From the UHGV virus genome UHGV-0199485: DNA of 11,900 nt. The stretch is one strand, 5' to 3'. Shown one piece after another: positions 2,313 through 11,900 of this stretch (positions are counted from its first letter, which is position 1; every line of letters begins with the position of its first letter). This stretch comes from a virus. A model generated the notes under the pieces. That model made no database searches. It had not been told where the DNA came from and worked only from the letters and a program-made list of their open reading frames with translations. A program made the translations under genes and the position numbers.

Positions 2313-2388
2313 TAAATTCTCCTTTGATTTCAAAGACTTAGTGCATTTTAATCATTTTTAACCAAGCCTTTGATATTTAAGTGTTTTA

Positions 2389-2458
2389 TCTGTTAAGCGT
2401 GAGCTACGTGAAAAATAATTTTTGGTGGGTATATCTGTTCAGGAGATTTCACGTAGCA
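2389..2458. repeat. Copy A of a 70-bp conserved dyad element (candidate activator-dependent promoter or recombination-type site)
   Basis: tctgttaagcgtgag-CTACGTGAAA-33 bp-TTTCACGTAG-ca. 68/70 identical to copy B (4534-4603). The 10-bp inverted-repeat arms are at 2404-2413 and 2447-2456. It lies between the tape-measure stop (2470) and the start of the next leftward gene (2312). Confidence 0.8.
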
Positions 2459-2469
2459 TTCGACTATTA

Positions 2470-4518
2470 TCAATCATCTTCTGGGAATGATGAACTTAAT
2501 AGCGTAGCTTCTGCGTATTGGTCGTAGATATTACTGCTAAAGGTCATAAAGCTGGTTTCATCTGGTTTAATGGCAACTTCACCACCAAGTGAAACTTTCA
2601 CAGGCTCCTGAATACGTTTGCTCAAAGCACTAATTTCATCTCTCAGGCTTTGGATATCCGTATTCGTTAATGCCGCATCTTGTCTCATGGTGATTAATTC
2701 TGGATGCTGGAAGTTAGCAAGATTCATAGCTGCACTATTAAACCAACCTTTCACATCGTCCATAGTAAATACTGGCTTAAGTCCAGATTCTTTAGCTAAC
2801 TCTGGTAATTTAGCTTGTGCTTCCATTCGTTCAGGTGTAGAGGCTAATCTTTCATAACCTGCATAGAGAGCGCTACCAGCTAATAGCATATTCCCAAGAT
2901 TCAGTCTTGATGGTTTCCCATTCTTTCTATTCACGTTATCCGCTGTAGTATCAGCAACCTGACCTAATCTTGTGATAGCAGTCATAAGCCCGTAAATACT
3001 TCTGGTTACACCAACAACTTTATTTACAGCAATAACACCAGCCAAGACTTTTAAACTATTAATCAAGCCAGAACCTAAAGCATCAACAACTTTCTTTTGT
3101 TCATCGGTTAAACCACGGTAAGCTAATGTCACCTCATCGAAGAACGCTCTTACCCTGTAACTGATATCAGTCAGGCTATCCACACCACTTGACATATCAG
3201 TCATCAAGCTACCAAGAGATTCACCAAGACTTTTACCGCTTCCACCTAAACTGTTTAAAAGCGTTGTTAAGCTTCGTGTGAAATCTTGCAGACCATTTTC
3301 AGAACCTCTGAAAATATCCGTTAATGAATTGTTCCAAGTATTCTTTAAGTTCCCTAACATTGTCTGCGTAGAGTCCTGAATAGCTTTCCAGCCACCTCTT
3401 GAATTAATCTGTGAACCAAGTTCTTTAGCAAACTTAGGGAGTGCATCAGAGGCTTTAACATCACCATTTTTCATCTTATCGAAAAGCTGTTTTTCAGTCA
3501 GACCTAAAGCCTTTGCAAATGCCTGAGTAGCACCCGGTAAAGCTTCAGATAGTTGCCCCTTAAGCTCTTCAGCCATCACCTGACCCTTAGAAGCCATCTG
3601 CGATACTGCGGTTAATGCTCTTTGAATCTGCTCATCTGAACGACCCATTAAACGAGCATATCCAGTTAAGTTTTTAAATAACTCTTCTGCCCCTTCAAGA
3701 CCCATCGTGTTCTTTGCAGATGCACCAAATGAAGCAAATTGCGCCTGTGTTTCGGTTGTGTCCATACCAGTAATTTGAGTTAAATCTTGAATGAACTTTT
3801 TGACCTGTGTACTTTGGTCACCGAATACGAAATCAATACTTCTTTCCGATGATGCACGTTGAAGGCCAACTTCCATAATCTTCTGATAAGCGGATAGTAC
3901 AGCCTGAAAGCTGATAAATGCACCTGCTGTTTTAACTGCTGCTGAACTCAAACTATCAAGACTATTAGCTGCTTTGTCACCGTTAATGCTGGTGGATGTA
4001 TGACCTCTGGCTTTAGCAATTGCTTCTCGTACACTTGAATTTAGTTTAGCAAGGGCTTCATTGAATTTTGAATTATCCATTGACCCAGCTTTAGCAGATA
4101 GCCCGTAAAACTGAGATTTGATGTATTTCTGCAAAATAGGGTCAAAGCCTTTTAACTTGCTCATGTTAGCCTGATAAGCTGCTCTTACTGCTCTATCACC
4201 TGTAACCCTTCTTGGCCTCGATTGTCTTGGCGGATTAATAACGTCATTAACCTGACTTGTGAAACGGAAAGCTTTAGTATTTTTTGCTCTAGCTTCCAGA
4301 CGGTCAAAAGTCTTATTAATTTTTCCTTCCATTGACTTCAAAGAAGCCGTTAAATTGCTGTCAAGTTTCTTGGTATCGACCTTAAACGCCCTATTCAAAT
4401 TACGTTCAATTCTTTGTGCTGACTGCAAAGCTGCCTTTTCAACTCTTTGCAAGCCCTTAACAACGTTCTCGCTGAAGCCTAGCTCAACGATAAAACTATC
4501 AACTGTGAATTTGCTCAT
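2470..4518 (-). CDS. Phage tail tape measure protein
   Basis: 682-aa ORF. The central segment ...SDEQIQRALTAVSQMASKGQVMAEELKGQLSEALPGATQAFAKALGLTEKQLFDKMKNGDV... fits the conserved tape-measure domain pattern. Helical N-terminal region and Gly/Ser-rich stretches are also typical. GAGGTGA lies about 10 nt upstream of the ATG. Confidence 0.75.
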   Translation of the reverse strand: MSKFTVDSFIVELGFSENVVKGLQRVEKAALQSAQRIERNLNRAFKVDTKKLDSNLTASLKSMEGKINKTFDRLEARAKNTKAFRFTSQVNDVINPPRQSRPRRVTGDRAVRAAYQANMSKLKGFDPILQKYIKSQFYGLSAKAGSMDNSKFNEALAKLNSSVREAIAKARGHTSTSINGDKAANSLDSLSSAAVKTAGAFISFQAVLSAYQKIMEVGLQRASSERSIDFVFGDQSTQVKKFIQDLTQITGMDTTETQAQFASFGASAKNTMGLEGAEELFKNLTGYARLMGRSDEQIQRALTAVSQMASKGQVMAEELKGQLSEALPGATQAFAKALGLTEKQLFDKMKNGDVKASDALPKFAKELGSQINSRGGWKAIQDSTQTMLGNLKNTWNNSLTDIFRGSENGLQDFTRSLTTLLNSLGGSGKSLGESLGSLMTDMSSGVDSLTDISYRVRAFFDEVTLAYRGLTDEQKKVVDALGSGLINSLKVLAGVIAVNKVVGVTRSIYGLMTAITRLGQVADTTADNVNRKNGKPSRLNLGNMLLAGSALYAGYERLASTPERMEAQAKLPELAKESGLKPVFTMDDVKGWFNSAAMNLANFQHPELITMRQDAALTNTDIQSLRDEISALSKRIQEPVKVSLGGEVAIKPDETSFMTFSSNIYDQYAEATLLSSSFPEDD

Positions 4519-4533
4519 TGTTCATATTTCACC

Positions 4534-4603
4534 TCTGTTAAGCGTGAGCTACGTAAAAAATAATTTTTGGTGGGTATATCTGTTCAGAAGATTTCACGTA
4601 GCA
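4534..4603. repeat. Copy B of the 70-bp conserved dyad element
   Basis: Same sequence as copy A with two substitutions (left arm CTACGTAAAA; core CAGAAGA vs CAGGAGA). It ends 15 bp upstream of the tape-measure ATG and directly follows a terminator-like hairpin. Confidence 0.8.
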
Positions 4604-4610
4604 CACATAC

Positions 4611-4653
4611 AAAAAAGGGAGAAACTACCGAATAATATCGATAATCTCTCCCC
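4611..4653 (-). terminator. Candidate rho-independent terminator for the 234-aa/71-aa transcription unit
   Basis: On the minus strand a 6-bp GC-rich stem (4617-4622 pairing with 4647-4652, GGGAGA/TCTCCC) with a 24-nt loop is followed by U6 (complement of A6 at 4611-4616). It sits about 50 nt after the 71-aa gene stop. The large loop weakens the call. Confidence 0.45.
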
Positions 4654-5676: not shown

Positions 5677-5762
5677 TTCAGTTTTTAAAAAGCACACCTG
5701 ACAGCCTACGAACTTAGAAGAGACTTAAAAGCGTTTGCCAAGTGTGCTTTTTAAAAACTGAA
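5677..5762. promoter_or_regulatory. Perfect 21-bp inverted repeat separated by 44 bp (hairpin or operator candidate)
   Basis: TTCAGTTTTTAAAAAGCACAC (5677-5697) and its exact reverse complement GTGTGCTTTTTAAAAACTGAA (5742-5762). It lies about 30 nt upstream of the 234-aa gene start codon, inside the predicted leader. Confidence 0.5.
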
Positions 5763-6464: not shown

Positions 6465-6651
6465 TTCTTAAAATCCTCTATGAGATAGTTTCTATCTAAT
6501 CCTATAAAACACATCTCAGACCTGCCAAAATAGCCATTCTGAGGCCAATAACCATGCGGGTTACAGAGGGAGTTGCACTGGCTGGTAAGGTAATTTATCA
6601 AATTAAGGTGCAACTCTGCCTGTAAAGTGCATTCTACCGTTACTTAGATGG

Positions 6652-7077
6652 TTATTTTGAATTGTCTTTATTAATCAATGATTTAACGTAGAAATACTGC
6701 CTCCGTGAAATACCATATTTTTCTGTGATGTATCGCTGAGATTGACCAGCATTTATGGCCTGAGTGATATCATCACGGTTATAGCGGTTACCACGGGATT
6801 TATATTTGTCACCATCCACATCTTCTGATGTATTGAAGTCTTCAATCAGCTTAATTGCATCGTGAAGGTCATCTTCTGAGGCATAATCGAAGGTATGGAT
6901 AATCTCAAAATCACCAGTATCTGCTGGTGCATTCTTCCATCTGGAGAAGCGGGATTTTAATTGCTGGTGTGTGAAAGGTTCAGCATTACGAGTTAAATCT
7001 TTCCATGTTCCGCTATTCTCACGGACAAGGTGGCCTCTATGGCGATAAAACGCATGATAATCAAATGTGCATAGCAT
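6652..7077 (-). CDS. Putative transcriptional regulator with C-terminal helix-turn-helix (Mor/C-like or resolvase-HTH-like)
   Basis: C-terminal segment RDDITQAINAGQSQRYITEKYGISRRQYFYV fits a DNA-binding HTH. The start codon overlaps the stop of the upstream gene (TAATG, 7075-7079), implying translational coupling. Confidence 0.55.
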   Translation of the reverse strand: MLCTFDYHAFYRHRGHLVRENSGTWKDLTRNAEPFTHQQLKSRFSRWKNAPADTGDFEIIHTFDYASEDDLHDAIKLIEDFNTSEDVDGDKYKSRGNRYNRDDITQAINAGQSQRYITEKYGISRRQYFYVKSLINKDNSK

Positions 7078-7402: not shown

Positions 7403-7453
7403 ATCTTAACATTTATTTAACATGTTGTCAACATCTCATTTACATGATATTAT
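7403..7453. promoter_or_regulatory. Divergent back-to-back promoters sharing a 13-bp palindromic operator
   Basis: Leftward: TTGACA (7431-7426), 17 bp, TAAGAT (7408-7403). Rightward: TTGTCA (7425-7430), 17 bp, TATTAT (7448-7453). The two -35 hexamers overlap inside the palindrome ATGTTG-t-CAACAT (7422-7434). Confidence 0.5.
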
Positions 7454-7986: not shown

Positions 7987-8897
7987 TGGATACCTCCACC
8001 TGCATAGTACATTTTAGGCTTAACCCTTTGCTTCTTATTTTCACTAACTACTTTCTTCTTTGGTGTGAAAGAAAAGTCATCATCGTCACCATCATCAAAG
8101 TCATCGAGGTCATTAACCTTGTTCTTTAGCTTCGCCATTTCAATGCGTGATTTAATCTCTGCTTTGCGTTGTGCTTTTTTAATAGCCTCTTCACGCTCTG
8201 ACTCTTCATCAAGGTAATCATCGAAGGGGTCCATCTCATCATCAGTGGCGGGGCACTGTGTGTTTTTATGGTCACTATCAACATTCACATCAGAGATTTT
8301 ATCCTCCTCTAAGTCAGATGTTTTAGAAGCCTCTTTAGTAGCTTCACTATCAAGGTCAGATTCATTCATAGAGAGAAAATCATTTAATTCATCCAAAGAA
8401 AGAAAGTCATCTTCTTTATTGTTATTAATAAGTTCTTTCTTGTTATTACTGTTATTATACGTGTCAAAGATTTTGACTGACTGAGTAAAAAATTTTGACT
8501 CAGTGGGTAAAGAATTTTGACTCAGTGGGTCATCTTTCTTGACTGACTGAGTAACTTTAGACTCCAGCTTTGCCTTTCTGGCTTCCTTAGCTGTAAGCTC
8601 TGTTAAAACTTCCGGTACTTCATCAAGTGAATAAACTTTAATAACACACTGATTGCTTGCAACGTTAGTTTTCTTGATTAAACCATGTGCCTCAAGTCGT
8701 TTCATACATGCAATCACGGATGTTCTTGTGATTCCAGCATACTGACCAAGATGAGCATATGAAGGGGTATAATATTGCCCCTTATCGTGATAAAACTTCT
8801 GTTCATTCAACATGACAGTGTAAATAATACGGTCGGCAGCTTTAACGCCATTAGTCATCTGATAAATACGGTCATCAAACATGTGGAATTTTTCCAT
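7983..8897 (-). CDS. Replication initiator protein (winged-helix, RepA_N-like N-terminal domain) with acidic C-terminal tail
   Basis: Preferred start is ATG 8897-8895 (MEKFHMFDD...), preceded by AAGGAAAA at 7-nt spacing; the ORF-track start at 8954 has no RBS. N-terminal ...DRIIYTVMLNEQKFYHDKGQYYTPSYAHLGQYAGITRTSVIACMKRLEAHGLIKK... resembles the DNA-binding domain of RepA_N-type initiators. Iterons and an AT-rich tract lie inside the coding sequence. The C-terminus is a poly-Asp/Glu tail (DDFDDGDDDDF). Confidence 0.6.
   Translation of the reverse strand: MEKFHMFDDRIYQMTNGVKAADRIIYTVMLNEQKFYHDKGQYYTPSYAHLGQYAGITRTSVIACMKRLEAHGLIKKTNVASNQCVIKVYSLDEVPEVLTELTAKEARKAKLESKVTQSVKKDDPLSQNSLPTESKFFTQSVKIFDTYNNSNNKKELINNNKEDDFLSLDELNDFLSMNESDLDSEATKEASKTSDLEEDKISDVNVDSDHKNTQCPATDDEMDPFDDYLDEESEREEAIKKAQRKAEIKSRIEMAKLKNKVNDLDDFDDGDDDDFSFTPKKKVVSENKKQRVKPKMYYAGGGIQ
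8471..8554. repeat. Four iterons at exact 22-bp spacing (candidate origin of replication inside the rep gene)
   Basis: TTTTGACTGACTGAGTAA (8471), TTTTGACTCAGTGGGTAA (8493), TTTTGACTCAGTGGGTCA (8515), TCTTGACTGACTGAGTAA (8537). An AT-rich tract (about 8395-8465) flanks them on the low-coordinate side. On the coding strand they encode a low-complexity linker. Confidence 0.55.
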
Positions 8898-9214: not shown

Positions 9215-9763
9215 AAGCAATCAAGCTAAAGGGTATTGACAAAGGGCTTGACAAGATTTTACCCTTTTAAAAGATACTTAAAAGATTCCGTTAAACAGGG
9301 TTTTCTTTCTGGTTTCTTCTCTCTCTTAAAAGCCTTTTAAGAATCCTATATAGAAGCAGTAAGTCTCAAAAACTCTGTGGGATAATTTCTAAAACACATC
9401 TCTCAGACTTCACTAGACGCATTCTAAGCCCCTAAATCGGGTAACTCTGGCAATCACCTTAAGCACTCTGAAAATAGCTTCAAAACTCGCTACAGAGCTT
9501 CCTGTGAACTGGTCTATGAATAGCCTAAACTGGTTGATAGGTTTGATTAAAATCTGTACAGATAATATCCAGCCTCTAATTTTTTTATAAAATCGTATTA
9601 GTCCCTCTTCATTTCTCTTCCACCGAATTTTTCGAAAATATCACAAGGCAGTGTATAGCTGCTAAGTACCCGCCACACCAGCTATGTGACCCCCTTTGCA
9701 GAATTTTAAAATATCTATTGACTTTCTATGTGAACTGTTATAAAGACCGCTCCATCTCTTAGG

Positions 9764-9856: not shown

Positions 9857-9891
9857 TAACTCATCAAATGAGTAAGGCAAATGAGTATATT

Positions 9892-10434
9892 ATGGCTAAC
9901 ATCGGTTATGTTCGAGTTTCAACAATCCAGCAGATTACAGACCGTCAACTTGAAGGGGTCGTACTGGATAAGGTATTTACTGATAAAGCATCTGGGAAGA
10001 ATACAGACCGTCCACAACTAAAGGCTATGCTCGATTATGTTCGTGAAGGTGACACTATCCATGTACACGACCTGTCACGTTTAGGGCGTTCTACCGTGGA
10101 TGTATTAACGCTGGTGGATAAACTTTCACAGAGAGGTATCAAGGTTCACTTTCACAAAGAAGGTCTGATAACTGGTGACGATAACCCCACGTCTAAGATG
10201 ATTCTCACAATCTTTTCAGCAGTGGCTGAAGCTGAACGTAAAATGATGCTTGAGCGTCAACGAGAAGGCTATGAAGCTGCTAAAGCTGCTGGTCGTGTAG
10301 TTGGAAGGGGTAACGGTAAAGCGATTGACAGAGAAGGTATTAAAGCTGCTCTTGCTGCTGGTAGTTCAATCGCTAAAGTAGCCGCTCAATTCAACGTTGC
10401 CAAGTCAACTGTACAGCGTATTAAAGCTGAATAA
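9892..10434 (+). CDS. Small serine recombinase (resolvase / DNA invertase family)
   Basis: N-terminus MANIGYVRVSTIQQ with the catalytic serine, a resolvase catalytic core (..DLSRLGRS..), a Gly-rich linker and a C-terminal HTH (SIAKVAAQFNVAKSTVQRIKAE). The ORF track starts 8 codons upstream at 9868; 9892 is preferred from the family N-terminal pattern and promoter position. Neither start has a strong RBS. Confidence 0.85.
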   Translation: MANIGYVRVSTIQQITDRQLEGVVLDKVFTDKASGKNTDRPQLKAMLDYVREGDTIHVHDLSRLGRSTVDVLTLVDKLSQRGIKVHFHKEGLITGDDNPTSKMILTIFSAVAEAERKMMLERQREGYEAAKAAGRVVGRGNGKAIDREGIKAALAAGSSIAKVAAQFNVAKSTVQRIKAE

Positions 10435-10460
10435 TTTCTCATCACCTATATAGATTCATG

Positions 10461-10484
10461 GCCTCCTTAATTGGGGGCTTTTTT
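10461..10484 (+). terminator. Rho-independent terminator after the small serine recombinase gene
   Basis: GCCTCC (10461-10466), loop TTAATT, GGGGGC (10473-10478) with one G-U pair, followed by T6 (10479-10484). It lies 27 nt after the stop codon. Confidence 0.6.
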
Positions 10485-10490
10485 GTATCC

Positions 10491-10582
10491 TCTAAGCGTG
10501 TACTACGTGATGATTCGGATAAGAATTATCCTCATAAAATCTCCTGAACACTTACCCACCCTCAGAAATAACTTTCACGTAG
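10491..10582. repeat. Copy C of the dyad element, with the core in opposite orientation and 29 bp longer
   Basis: Shares TAAGCGTG-nn-CTACGTGA (10493-10510) and TTTCACGTAG (10573-10582) with copies A/B. Its 62-bp core contains AAATCTCCTGAACAC-TTACCCACC, the reverse complement of the A/B core GGTGGGTATATCTGTTCAGGAGATTT. Confidence 0.7.
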
Positions 10583-10655
10583 GAAATCGTTAAGGGTTTT
10601 ATAGTTACACTATGTGACCAACTGCATGAATAGCGTTATATATCCCTGTATATAG

Positions 10656-10671
10656 CACTATATATATAGTG
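10656..10671. promoter_or_regulatory. Perfect 16-bp palindrome CACTATATATATAGTG (operator-like)
   Basis: Exact palindrome in the intergenic region between element copy C and the 3' end of the 277-aa gene. A TATAGCA motif also recurs upstream of the recombinase (about 9771-9795). Confidence 0.3.
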
Positions 10672-10896
10672 TCTGGAGAGGAACGACTAACACGATACAG
10701 TTTACCCTGAAAAGAGACTTCACAGATTCTTTATATATTTCAATGAGTTAGGATAAAAAGGGACTATACCGATACTGCATAGAATCTGTGTAAAACTGCT
10801 TAGATATTTGAAGAAATACCGTTAAATTGCATAGTCATAGGGGTTGGAACAAGCCCAACTACACCTGTTTATGTCCTGTTATTTACAGGCATAGCA

Positions 10897-11730: not shown

Positions 11731-11806
11731 AGCTAACCCTCGGAAATCTTATCTTTCTGTCTATCATAACCACAAGCATCACCTTTAGGAACCATCTGAA
11801 ACGGGA

Positions 11807-11854
11807 GGTGTATTTAGACCTTGCTAATCTTCATCAGACACGTTTAAATACACC
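11807..11854. other. 13-bp imperfect inverted repeat with 22-bp spacer upstream of the 277-aa gene
   Basis: GGTGTATTTAGAC (11807-11819) and GTTTAAATACACC (11842-11854), one mismatch. A possible -10 TATGAT (complement of 11763-11768) lies between it and the gene start. Confidence 0.3.
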
Positions 11855-11900
11855 ACCTAAAGCGATACAATCGCGCTATTAGTTTTTATGGTGGTAAAGA

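Follow-up and report, generated by a model that had tools for sequence, protein, structure and literature searches.

A 53-nt dyad cassette beside captured tail genes of an E. coli integrative island and in diverse phages: a candidate mRNA-leader stem-loop

The stretch of viral DNA analysed here (UHGV-0199485; 11,900 nucleotides, referred to below as the window) contains three copies of a portable 53-nt dyad cassette. The same cassette occurs in T7-like, P1/Cre-like, rV5-like and SU10-like phages, in lambdoid prophages, and on a contig encoding a Zot-like protein. It is tentatively read as a stem-loop of the mRNA leader that would act next to the translation start, a reading held at clearly less than even confidence. 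The cassette is apparently undescribed. A literature search by sequence string and by topic yielded no description of a 53-nt dyad, and Rfam gave no family match, only generic hairpin (miRNA) matches far below threshold. The window is the excised form of an approximately 12-kb integrative island of E. coli, which encodes a large serine recombinase, a replication initiator with iterons, a tape-measure protein (TMP) and a hub protein, the last two 80-95% like their counterparts in Felix O1-like phages. Because it has taken its TMP and baseplate-hub genes from Felix O1-like phages, the island is probably a satellite of such phages; no description of a satellite of these widely used virulent phages was found in the literature searched. 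About 10% of complete E. coli genomes carry a member of the island family. The initial annotation had described the surroundings of the repeats as a tail module; the tail genes are indeed present, but the DNA that carries them is an island and not a phage.

Table 1. Positions of the cassette copies and of the neighbouring features in the window
Feature	Position	Strand	Remarks
Copy A, dyad cassette	2389..2458	-	Slot between TMP stop and Dit-like gene; covariance model R1 53.6 bits, E 2.7e-12
Copy A core	2404-2456 (53 nt)	-	Arms 2447-2456 and 2404-2413
Copy A polar flank CTCACGCTTAACAGA	2389-2403	-	
Copy B, dyad cassette	4534..4603	-	Slot between terminator and TMP ribosome-binding site; R1 52.3 bits, E 6e-12
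Copy B core	4549-4601 (53 nt)	-	
Copy B flank CTCACGCTTAACAGA	4534-4548	-	
Copy C, diverged, opposite orientation	10484..10594 (about)	+	R1 21.3 bits, E 0.0015, insertion allowed for
Copy C parts	left arm 10503-10510; right arm 10573-10582	+	Left flank TAAGCGTGTA
Copy C insertion, 27 nt	about 10511-10537	+	Itself a hairpin; followed by the loop
Intrinsic terminator, …TCTCCCT TTTTTGTATG	4616..4653	-	Immediately 5' of copy B; present in every island compared
Intrinsic terminator after small serine recombinase gene	10460..10479	+	Directly upstream of copy C
Tape-measure gene (TMP), 682 aa	2470..4518	-	Downstream of copy B
TMP ribosome-binding site GAGGTG	4530-4535	-	
Dit-like / baseplate-hub gene, 257 aa	1539..2312	-	Downstream of copy A
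77-nt leader, copy A to Dit-like start	2313..2388	-	Predicted hairpin CAAAGGCTT/AAGTCTTTG, read from sequence

Copies A and B are direct repeats with an identity of 68/70, oriented in the same way as the minus-strand genes. A 69-nt pattern with at most three mismatches matches these two places alone, with 0 matches expected from 200 shuffles. In both copies the arms are CTACGTGAAA and TTT(C/T)ACGTAG, separated by a gap of 33 nt and spanning 53 nt from arm to arm. The initial description of two near-identical 70-bp elements, with 10-bp inverted arms about 33 bp apart and a span of about 53 bp, placed 5' of two leftward genes, is therefore accurate, and the two genes encode the TMP and a Dit-like protein. 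The hairpin directly before copy B, previously called terminator-like, is an intrinsic terminator (4653-4616). Copies A and B themselves are not called as intrinsic terminators, which requires a G+C-rich stem and a T-run; here the stem is followed by CTCACGCTTAAC. Between the end of copy B and the TMP start codon at 4518 are 15 nt, which include the ribosome-binding site; copy A lies 13 nt past the TMP stop and 77 nt ahead of the Dit-like start (2312). In leaderless islands, the distance from copy A to the Dit-like start codon is 24 nt. The 3' half of the predicted leader hairpin could alternatively pair with the ribosome-binding-site region TCAAAGGAG. All three copies belong to the 53-nt CTACGTG dyad family represented by model R1 and defined in this analysis by inverted arms CTACGTGA... 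/ ...TYACGTAG with an arm-to-arm distance of exactly 53 nt. In the island arms the outer 8-10 nt alone still pair, and the gene-side flank is CnCACGCTTAA.

The origin of the two tail genes can be seen in their similarity to those of phage ekra and its relatives. The Dit-like protein is 80% identical to ekra gp87, and the DNA of its gene shares 90-95% identity with Felixounavirus over positions 1754-2283. The TMP shares about 45 N-terminal residues and a short C-terminal LLSSSxPE with the ekra TMP, at 28% identity over the alignment. Among related loci fetched, every one retains copy A and about half contain copy B; the presence of copies B and C varies among islands. In E. coli strain SCU-387, which bears the island, copy A is identical to that of the window. 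The 53-nt span is found in 58/67 island matches. A search of E. coli genomes with the 70-mer, as had been proposed, gave matches in 465/5426 genomes, and the matches listed all fall under a tape-measure gene or in unannotated DNA. Two family members from outside the island gave zero matches in the E. coli genomes searched. On the question of a generic dispersed repeat, also raised initially, the 70-mer is not chromosome-wide, but the core is dispersed among many unrelated phages. Two further ideas about the island were discarded. An inversion of the recombinase-bearing segment was dropped, as the window and locus L003 just encode different recombinase genes. Antisense pairing of copy C with copies A and B starts from a 15-nt perfect match in the window, but across islands the loops show no co-variation.

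Across the wider family, the span of the cassette is its most regular property. All matches listed measure 53 nt from arm to arm when 43-68 nt are allowed, and 12/15 do so when 38-68 nt are allowed. Judged by comparison of the copies, the putative ancestral form is (gcg)CTACGTGAAATCTG-N25-CAGATTTCACGTAG(cgc), with 53 nt from arm to arm and a free 25-nt loop. An ORF start lies beside 73% of 123 distinct elements, compared with 61% for random positions, so that this proximity measure carries little information. Some copies adjoin genes for TerS or RepL-like proteins, and the rV5 copy is located inside an iteron-rich 2.6-kb non-coding region. No phage-encoded protein common to all carrier groups was found in the gene neighbourhoods examined.

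In T7, a single copy is found around the start of gene 18.5 (NC_001604, 36884-36936; model E 1e-8), and the record contains no annotation of the dyad. The left arm CTACGTGAAATCTG is identical to that of the island, the 53-nt span is equal, and the right arm GAATTTTTACGTAA resembles the island's TAGAATTTACGTAG. However, the 25-nt T7 loop encloses the start of gene 18.5, with its Shine-Dalgarno sequence GGGAGG and its ATG, and codons 3-7 form the right arm, whereas copies A and B have the complement (ACCCAC) in the loop and their ribosome-binding site is located 3' of the stem. In T7-like phages the left arm lies 9-12 nt ahead of the gene 18.5 Shine-Dalgarno sequence; in some of them it is intact while the partner arm has decayed. 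A separate T7 hairpin, at the position of R18.5, lies about 30 nt upstream of the dyad.

The P1 copy (NC_005856, 119-171) is located between loxP and cra-cre, 35 nt before a start codon. It resembles the island cassette in its arms, its 53-nt span and its gene-side flank, which is CGCACTTAGC in P1 and the related CTCACGCTTAAC in the island. In contrast to the island, the P1 left arm includes TAAAAT, annotated as the -10 of promoter P3cre/pR1, and the loop sense is opposite to that of copies A and B. The record shows this promoter overlapping the left arm, and the dyad itself is without annotation. ArgR/PepA have been shown not to bind next to loxP (PMC2409434). The loop is flipped between P1 and one P1 relative. 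The lox-dyad-cre order is kept between Cre proteins that are only 38% identical while the loops have fully diverged, which implies purifying selection on the arms.

If the cassette acts in the transcript, its stem-loop would be located in the mRNA leader beside the translation initiation region or, in T7, around that region. It would be read by host machinery common to all carriers, such as the ribosome and RNases. The expected effect would be on the 5'-end stability and/or the translation of the downstream cistron, and that cistron would be uncoupled from the one upstream. In the island, the cassette sits in the gap that separates a terminator or a stop codon from the ribosome-binding site of each captured gene (TMP and hub), and one further cassette, copy C, adjoins the conserved non-coding TGCATAGA-repeat block. 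A host-read leader of this kind would explain how a satellite re-wires captured tail genes without copying helper signals. It would also mean that T7, P1 and many prophages share an unannotated control module.

Several observations favour a leader element. Copies A and B lie just ahead of start codons and in the gene direction, and the T7 copy encloses the translation start of gene 18.5. In the Felix O1-like phage, the TMP and Dit genes abut with one base in common and zero spacer, so that they may be translationally coupled. The carriers are unrelated and, in the gene neighbourhoods examined, have no common phage-encoded protein. A 27-nt hairpin insertion is tolerated within the loop, and loop sequence and orientation vary freely while the arms are kept. 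All variants that were folded are predicted to form the stem, at z-scores of -3.8 to -1.35. Most substitutions in the arms, when followed in the direction of the gene, allow wobble pairing: G7.U47 occurs in 18/30 island variants, the flipped type has the wobbles G5.U49 and U1.G53, and A.C is seen once only.

Other observations count against a leader element. Covariation beyond conservation was not detected in the alignment, in which 83.3% of cells are paired compared with 84.0% in shuffles, and 3 pairs show double changes where shuffled controls give 3.9. The pairing is accounted for by the conserved arms. A plain hairpin does not explain why the left arm stays intact in T7-like phages whose partner arm has decayed. 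In P1, the position of the -10 (TAAAAT) within the left arm means that the hairpin would be missing from the P3cre/pR1 transcript, and an A.C mismatch appears when the arms are read towards cra. It is as sequence that the arms are conserved, and neither copy C nor the rV5 copy is followed by a gene. The folding z-scores of several variants are weak. Copies B and C lie just past strong terminators and would consequently be transcribed by read-through only. Of the three readings offered in the initial annotation, the structured RNA leader nevertheless fits the wider evidence best. It is possible, if doubtful, that the dyad forms a distinct class of cis-element in diverse enterobacterial viruses and that a single host factor (the ribosome itself, or a protein that binds RNA or DNA) recognises it sequence-specifically. 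If so, two laboratory workhorses would harbour the dyad unnoticed, T7 at its 18.5 start and P1 in the loxP-cre region.

The most direct alternative is a regulated promoter or operator, in which a factor would bind the two arms at their spacing of about four helical turns, and a promoter without a -35, in or beside the dyad, would fire into TMP and Dit, making each gene its own late transcription unit. The position of copies B and C behind terminators is the classic place for a promoter. Conserved arm sequence and a span fixed at 53 nt are as expected for protein-DNA geometry, each extended arm contains two GTGA boxes 9-10 bp apart, and the annotated P1 promoter overlaps the left arm. In addition, the early genes of the island have canonical sigma70 promoters while TMP and Dit do not. 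However, this reading is unlikely. A sigma70 promoter with at least 9/12 hexamer matches and a 16-18-nt spacer was not found in 2389-2458, 4534-4603 or 10484-10594, in agreement with the initial remark that the two repeats lack a convincing -35/-10 pair. Inspection of the sequence variants for sigma54, 32, 24 and 28 gave no consistent match. The only -10-like positions in the element (T40, A41, T45) are what decay has left of the outer portion of the ancestral right arm, CAGATTT, and the left arm of the island has TGAAAT, in which the critical second position is a G. A candidate "-10" spanning element positions 40-45 (TAnntT), from which transcription would begin at A52, was dropped because these positions correspond to that decayed arm in the wider family and because flipped loops exist. 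The loop flips relative to the gene, copy B is missing in about half of the islands, and copy C carries insertions of 27 to about 110 nt that disrupt spacing. No regulator common to the carriers was found in the gene neighbourhoods examined. The T7 copy sits among late genes, which the phage's own RNA polymerase transcribes; this speaks against a role as host promoter or host operator in T7.

The version of this reading in which the island mimics late promoters of its helper was evaluated in phage ekra, the one helper-type genome scanned in full. Exact and degenerate arm, flank and interior searches, a position weight matrix of positions 18-46 and the covariance model gave nothing above chance there, and blastn against 50,697 phage records gave no Felixounavirus match. 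The earlier suggestion of a promoter dependent on an activator or a phage polymerase is weakened by the missing phage motif, the arm-remnant "-10", the flipped loops, the islands without copy B and the T7 late region; its helper-late form is not supported. The late promoters of P2 and P4 carry an Ogr/Delta dyad, TGT-N12-ACA at -55, in helper and satellite alike. They resemble the present case in having dyad symmetry 5' of satellite late genes without a good -35. They differ in that the P2/P4 dyad is also present in the helper, whereas the Felix O1-like phage is without the island dyad. The PeSL ("promoter-early stem-loop") cassettes of T4-type phages, as Arbiol et al. (2010) reportedly described them, are associated with a strong sigma70 promoter. 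They are similar to the dyad as small repeated intergenic cassettes by terminators, with variable presence and a role as markers of recombination boundaries. The dyad, in contrast, lacks such a promoter, and the terminators adjoin copies B and C.

The distribution of the cassette raises the possibility of a selfish or recombinogenic palindrome, spread by recombination or template switching and shuffling modules in the manner of PeSL-type or MITE-like elements, with no dedicated role at TMP or Dit. This would agree with its scatter across unrelated mobile elements and with the variable presence of copies B and C. The loop interiors in islands are mosaics of 5' and 3' modules with clear recombinants, and loops are inverted in some lineages. 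Some empty TMP sites retain a "solo flank" remnant, ATGAACACTTAA. Such an origin is nonetheless rather improbable, as the cassette has neither a target-site duplication nor an associated transposase, copy A is present in every related locus fetched, and the arms appear to be under the purifying selection implied by the P1 group. With REP/BIME and Correia elements it shares short imperfect palindromes, a place in transcribed intergenic DNA and an outer CTAC...GTAG. Those elements, however, are chromosome-wide and have a dedicated transposase or target duplication, while the dyad is confined to mobile elements and has a 53-nt span. It does not classify as a MITE or Correia-like element, since filled and empty TMP sites differ without duplication and no chromosome-wide copies are among the matches listed.

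A further alternative is a replicon-level DNA signal, that is, a strand-symmetric single-stranded DNA hairpin used for priming, recombination or packaging and working in either orientation. The symmetric arms would give the same stem on both strands, and large genomes carry the dyad in single copy. Copies lie near cis-sites or genes of this kind, including loxP, the rV5 iterons, the TGCATAGA block, the TerS and RepL-like genes and the Zot-like contig. Within the islands, copies B and C are dispensable and copy A never is. The flank AAGCG(G/T) also resembles AAGCGG, a motif reported for PriA assembly sites. Such a function is quite improbable: T7 replicates with its own primase-helicase and yet has the dyad exactly at a gene start, the flank has a fixed polarity, pointing to the gene downstream in islands and P1 group alike, and known priming sites are less conserved in sequence.

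Inverted loops could also indicate a switch, in which an adjacent small serine recombinase flips the 33-bp interior via the 10-nt inverted repeats and thereby turns expression on or off. In copy C, which adjoins a Hin-like recombinase gene, and in the type comprising L002, L003, L046, L047 and L055, the interior runs opposite to its flanks. In the latter type the mean identity is 14/33 as reverse complement and 9.3/33 forward, and 27/5000 shuffles reach 14/33. An active switch is very improbable, because orientation is fixed per lineage over about 55 loci with the opposite state in no locus, most islands lack the small recombinase, a segment of 33 bp does not leave enough length for two-site synapsis, and P1 relatives show the same flips. 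The lineage-fixed orientation and the lack of an invertase in most islands likewise separate the cassette from invertons.

The initial annotation had also likened the arm geometry to attachment sites of large serine recombinases. An attachment or recombination site for the 507-aa enzyme of the island retains scarcely any probability: the overall size of about 53 bp and the outer inverted repeats fit, and nothing else does. The attP of the island (11804-11857, GGAGGTGTATTTAGACCTTGCTAAT / ATCAGACACGTTTAAATACACCACC) and the attL and attR of L002 are unrelated to the dyad in sequence. The interior is not symmetric, the odd length of 53 nt leaves no central dinucleotide, and the element regions of T7, P1 and rV5 contain no annotated or called serine recombinase. 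Integron attC sites (RYYYAAC ... GTTRRRY) do not match either, since the TTAAC-type motifs of the flank are direct and not inverted, and the island encodes no tyrosine recombinase. Several resemblances noticed by eye were set aside. Those to attC-like cores, REP/RAYT, Chi and CRP/PurR/FruR half-sites are inconsistent across the family. ATTTCAC of P1 ParB box A is found in the arms but is imperfect in P1's own copy, and only ATCTG of the T7 class II pause signal ATCTGTT belongs to the conserved part.

With regard to the tentatively preferred mRNA-leader stem-loop, a comparison is offered by the RNase III sites of T7, which, according to Dunn and Studier, are said to be conserved intergenic hairpins upstream of cistrons, present in several copies and read by a host RNase. 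Both types of hairpin are found just 5' of cistrons and in several copies per genome. They differ in architecture: the T7 sites have an interrupted duplex of about 20 bp with small loops, whereas the dyad has an 8-14(17)-bp stem with a 25-33-nt loop. Compared with the criterion of about two duplex turns for RNase III, island stems measure 8-11 bp and those of P1-type copies 14-17 bp.

The direct repeat described in the initial annotation is real and non-random. Its two 70-nt copies, A and B, are identical at 68 of 70 positions, and a 69-nt pattern with up to three mismatches matches these two places alone in the window (none expected from 200 shuffles). Both copies are oriented like the minus-strand genes and carry inverted arms, CTACGTGAAA and TTT(C/T)ACGTAG, separated by 33 nt, which gives an arm-to-arm span of 53 nt. 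The anatomy first described was right, as were the terminator-like hairpin directly before copy B, called here as an intrinsic terminator, and the want of a convincing sigma70 -35/-10 pair, none being called within copy A or B. A third copy, C, contains a 27-nt insertion that itself forms a hairpin.

Coordinates and settings of the dyad copies and associated features (window positions unless a phage or accession is given)
Feature	Position	Orientation	Setting
Copy B	4534-4603	minus	between intrinsic terminator 4653-4616 and RBS and ATG of the 682-aa tape-measure gene (TMP)
Copy A	2389-2458	minus	13 nt past the TMP stop, 77 nt ahead of the Dit-like/baseplate-hub gene
Copy C	~10484-10594	opposite to A and B	diverged; directly after the terminator of the small serine recombinase gene
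attP-like dyad of the large serine recombinase	11804-11857		intact; imperfect inverted arms of 25 nt with a 4-nt gap
Small serine recombinase gene	9868-10434		Hin/resolvase-like, 188 aa; variable cargo
Dyad, phage P1 and many relatives	NC_005856 119-171		between loxP and cra-cre
Dyad, two further Cre-like systems			Cre only 38% identical; order lox-like site, dyad, cre-like gene kept
Dyad, rV5-like virulent myoviruses			within 2.6-kb non-coding, repeat-rich region
Dyad, SU10-like phage			between two structural genes
Dyad, contig encoding a Zot-like protein
Dyad, contig with TerS and RepL-like genes			adjoins these genes
Dyad, lambdoid prophages			between endolysin and spanin genes (function by gene order and encoded N-terminus)
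Dyad, T7 and T7-like phages	T7 36884-36936		single copy in T7, E 1e-8

The window is not a phage. A matching island of ~12 kb is present in 569 of 5426 complete E. coli genomes (about 10%), inserted in yecE or beside tonB, and has relatives in E. albertii, Citrobacter, Shigella and gut metagenomes. The halves of the attP-like dyad correspond to attL and attR of integrated copies; consequently, the window represents the island after excision, in circularly permuted form. Besides TMP and the Dit-like protein, the genes of the island specify a large serine recombinase, a replication initiator with iterons and several small proteins. The Dit-like gene matches that of Felix O1-like virulent phages at 80% protein identity and 90-95% DNA identity (1754-2283), and TMP has in common with the phage TMP only about 45 N-terminal residues and a short C-terminal motif, LLSSSxPE. 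Because TMP and the baseplate-hub gene were taken from these phages, the island is probably their satellite and probably belongs to an undescribed family; no satellite of Felix O1-like phages was described in the literature searched. The small serine recombinase is absent from most islands, and island L003 has a different recombinase gene in the same place on the opposite strand.

The element was compared across about 55 related loci. Copy A is kept upstream of the Dit-like gene in all of them, cut by an apparent insertion in the Shigella locus L015. Copy B is found in about half, and where it is missing the TMP RBS comes immediately after the terminator. A type-C copy is present in most loci and missing in L007. 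The span is exactly 53 nt in 58 of 67 matches on one strand of the island loci, the others including 80-nt copies with an insertion and long type-C copies; in one IMG/VR island copy it is 54 nt. There is almost no variation in the arms and the gene-side flank CACGCTTAA, and the interior combines exchangeable 5' and 3' modules in mosaic fashion. One lineage (L002, L003, L046, L047 and L055) has the interior in inverted orientation with respect to the Dit-like gene, with a mean identity to other variants of 14/33 as reverse complement, a value reached by 27 of 5000 shuffles, versus 9.3/33 forward; the interior of copy C is likewise inverted relative to the flank motif. In several long type-C copies (L002 14751-14870, L010, L023 and others) the expanded loop holds ATCACCTCCTAA, a sequence close to the 16S rRNA 3' end (anti-Shine-Dalgarno); the complement of this sequence gives a strong Shine-Dalgarno ahead of a 6-codon ORF.

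The element is not a copy of a helper signal. The 87-kb genome of ekra, a Felix O1-like phage scanned in full, contains no dyad, no flank motif, no arm beyond chance and no PWM match above shuffles; the best hit of the covariance model has E 0.37 and the wrong length, and blastn against 50,697 phage records gave no Felixounavirus match. The late genes of ekra follow the layout of terminator, then RBS, without a promoter, so in this the islands without copy B resemble the phage. A helper-specific late promoter is excluded, and the activator-dependent or phage-polymerase promoter considered initially is weakened: there is no helper counterpart, the loop faces either way, copy B is dispensable, and the -10-like positions (T40, A41, T45) are the decayed outer part of an ancestral right arm. 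The suggested resemblance to large serine recombinase attachment sites also failed: the true attP lies elsewhere and is unrelated, and the element is of odd length without a symmetric core. An active invertible switch is excluded by an orientation fixed per lineage and by the small recombinase missing from most islands. Nor is the 70-mer a generic chromosomal repeat, since the E. coli matches listed fall under a tape-measure gene or in unannotated DNA; none of those listed is on a plasmid.

An IMG/VR scan with the arms alone recovered a wider group in many unrelated viral contigs, with the consensus (gcg)CTACGTGAAATCTG-N25-CAGATTTCACGTAG(cgc). The span was 53 nt in all matches listed when 43-68 nt was allowed, and in 12 of 15 when 38-68 nt was allowed. 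The dyad forms a widespread fixed-length family. By sequence, the nearest relatives are two unannotated dyads, one at the start of T7 gene 18.5 and one in the cre regulatory region of P1; the loop of P1 is inverted with respect to that of its relative L063, within homologous flanks. In T7 the loop includes both the Shine-Dalgarno sequence (GGGAGG) and the gene 18.5 ATG, and codons 3-7 form the right arm; several T7-like phages keep an intact left arm with a decayed partner. T7 RNase III sites, the PeSL cassettes of T4-type phages and REP-type palindromes are similar by analogy, but the element fails their testable defining features. No Rfam family matches the dyad, and a sequence-string literature search returned nothing relevant. 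The repeats are more interesting than at first sight, because they expose this family and a probable new satellite family.

Of the three readings first offered, a structured RNA leader agrees best with the evidence. The element would fold as a stem-loop in the mRNA leader and determine the downstream cistron's stability and/or its translation, a reading preferred tentatively, at low to moderate confidence. It is favoured by several observations. The gene neighbourhoods examined reveal no phage-encoded protein common to all carrier groups, which share host translation and RNA-decay machinery. The T7 element sits exactly on a translation start, in a region that T7's own polymerase transcribes. 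The island element occupies the space that separates a stop codon or a terminator from the RBS that follows, replacing the abutting, spacer-free junction of the TMP and Dit-like counterparts in ekra. Most arm substitutions, read in the gene direction, keep wobble pairing possible (18 of 30 variants have G7.U47, and A.C never occurs at that pair), and the loop accommodates the self-folding 27-nt insertion.

The mRNA-leader reading has weak points. No covariation beyond conservation was found, and the arm sequence is conserved even where pairing is lost. Copies B and C stand behind terminators, and neither copy C nor the rV5 copy has a gene downstream. In P1, the -10 (TAAAAT) of the annotated promoter P3cre/pR1 falls inside the left arm. 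These points leave room for three rivals, all unlikely: in order of decreasing probability, a protein-bound operator or promoter, a selfish recombinogenic cassette, and a replicon-wide signal in single-stranded DNA.

Several further features were observed. Copy A is abutted by three consecutive in-frame stops at the TMP 3' end (TGA TAA TAG, 2461-2472). The Dit-like leader (2313-2388), missing from 'leaderless' islands, contains a hairpin, CAAAGGCTT/AAGTCTTTG, whose 3' half could alternatively pair with TCAAAGGAG at the RBS; such pairing, if formed, might act as a translational switch. Lox-like 13-8-13 sites, ATAACTCCATATA-ACACCCAT-TATATGGAGTTAT in locus L065 (about 6620-6655) and AGTAATATAA...TTATATTACT in L081 (about 310-340), lie upstream of the diverged Cre-like genes and may form orthogonal lox/Cre pairs with them. 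Back-to-back sigma70 promoters at 7403-7453 (TTGACA-17-TAAGAT leftward, TTGTCA-17-TATTAT rightward), a region without a dyad arm, separate a 68-aa ORF from a 96-aa ORF whose N-terminus is ribbon-helix-helix-like by eye, with no Pfam or NCBIfam match; the region is probably the regulatory switch of the island. Three 22-nt iterons (GTCAAAGATTTTGACTGACTGA) lie at 8463-8550 within the 323-aa replication-initiator-like gene. Downstream of a strong sigma70 promoter (6039-6011), the 5' leader of a 234-aa gene carries a 27-nt inverted repeat, 93% complementary (5677-5762), whose loop contains CTTAGAAGAGACTTAAAAG; this motif is repeated at positions 9266 and 10707, and the intergenic regions of ekra hold recurring CTTTTAAGAG-type motifs of similar appearance. 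Directly past copy C, a non-coding block of ~270 nt (10583-10860) is 84-91% conserved across the six loci compared by blastn. It also aligns in L053, where the recombinase is just 68% identical and no obvious TMP- or Dit-sized ORFs adjoin its gene. The block, in which 4-5 TGCATAGA-like repeats occur together with small alternative hairpins, might serve as an origin or packaging site or specify a non-coding RNA.
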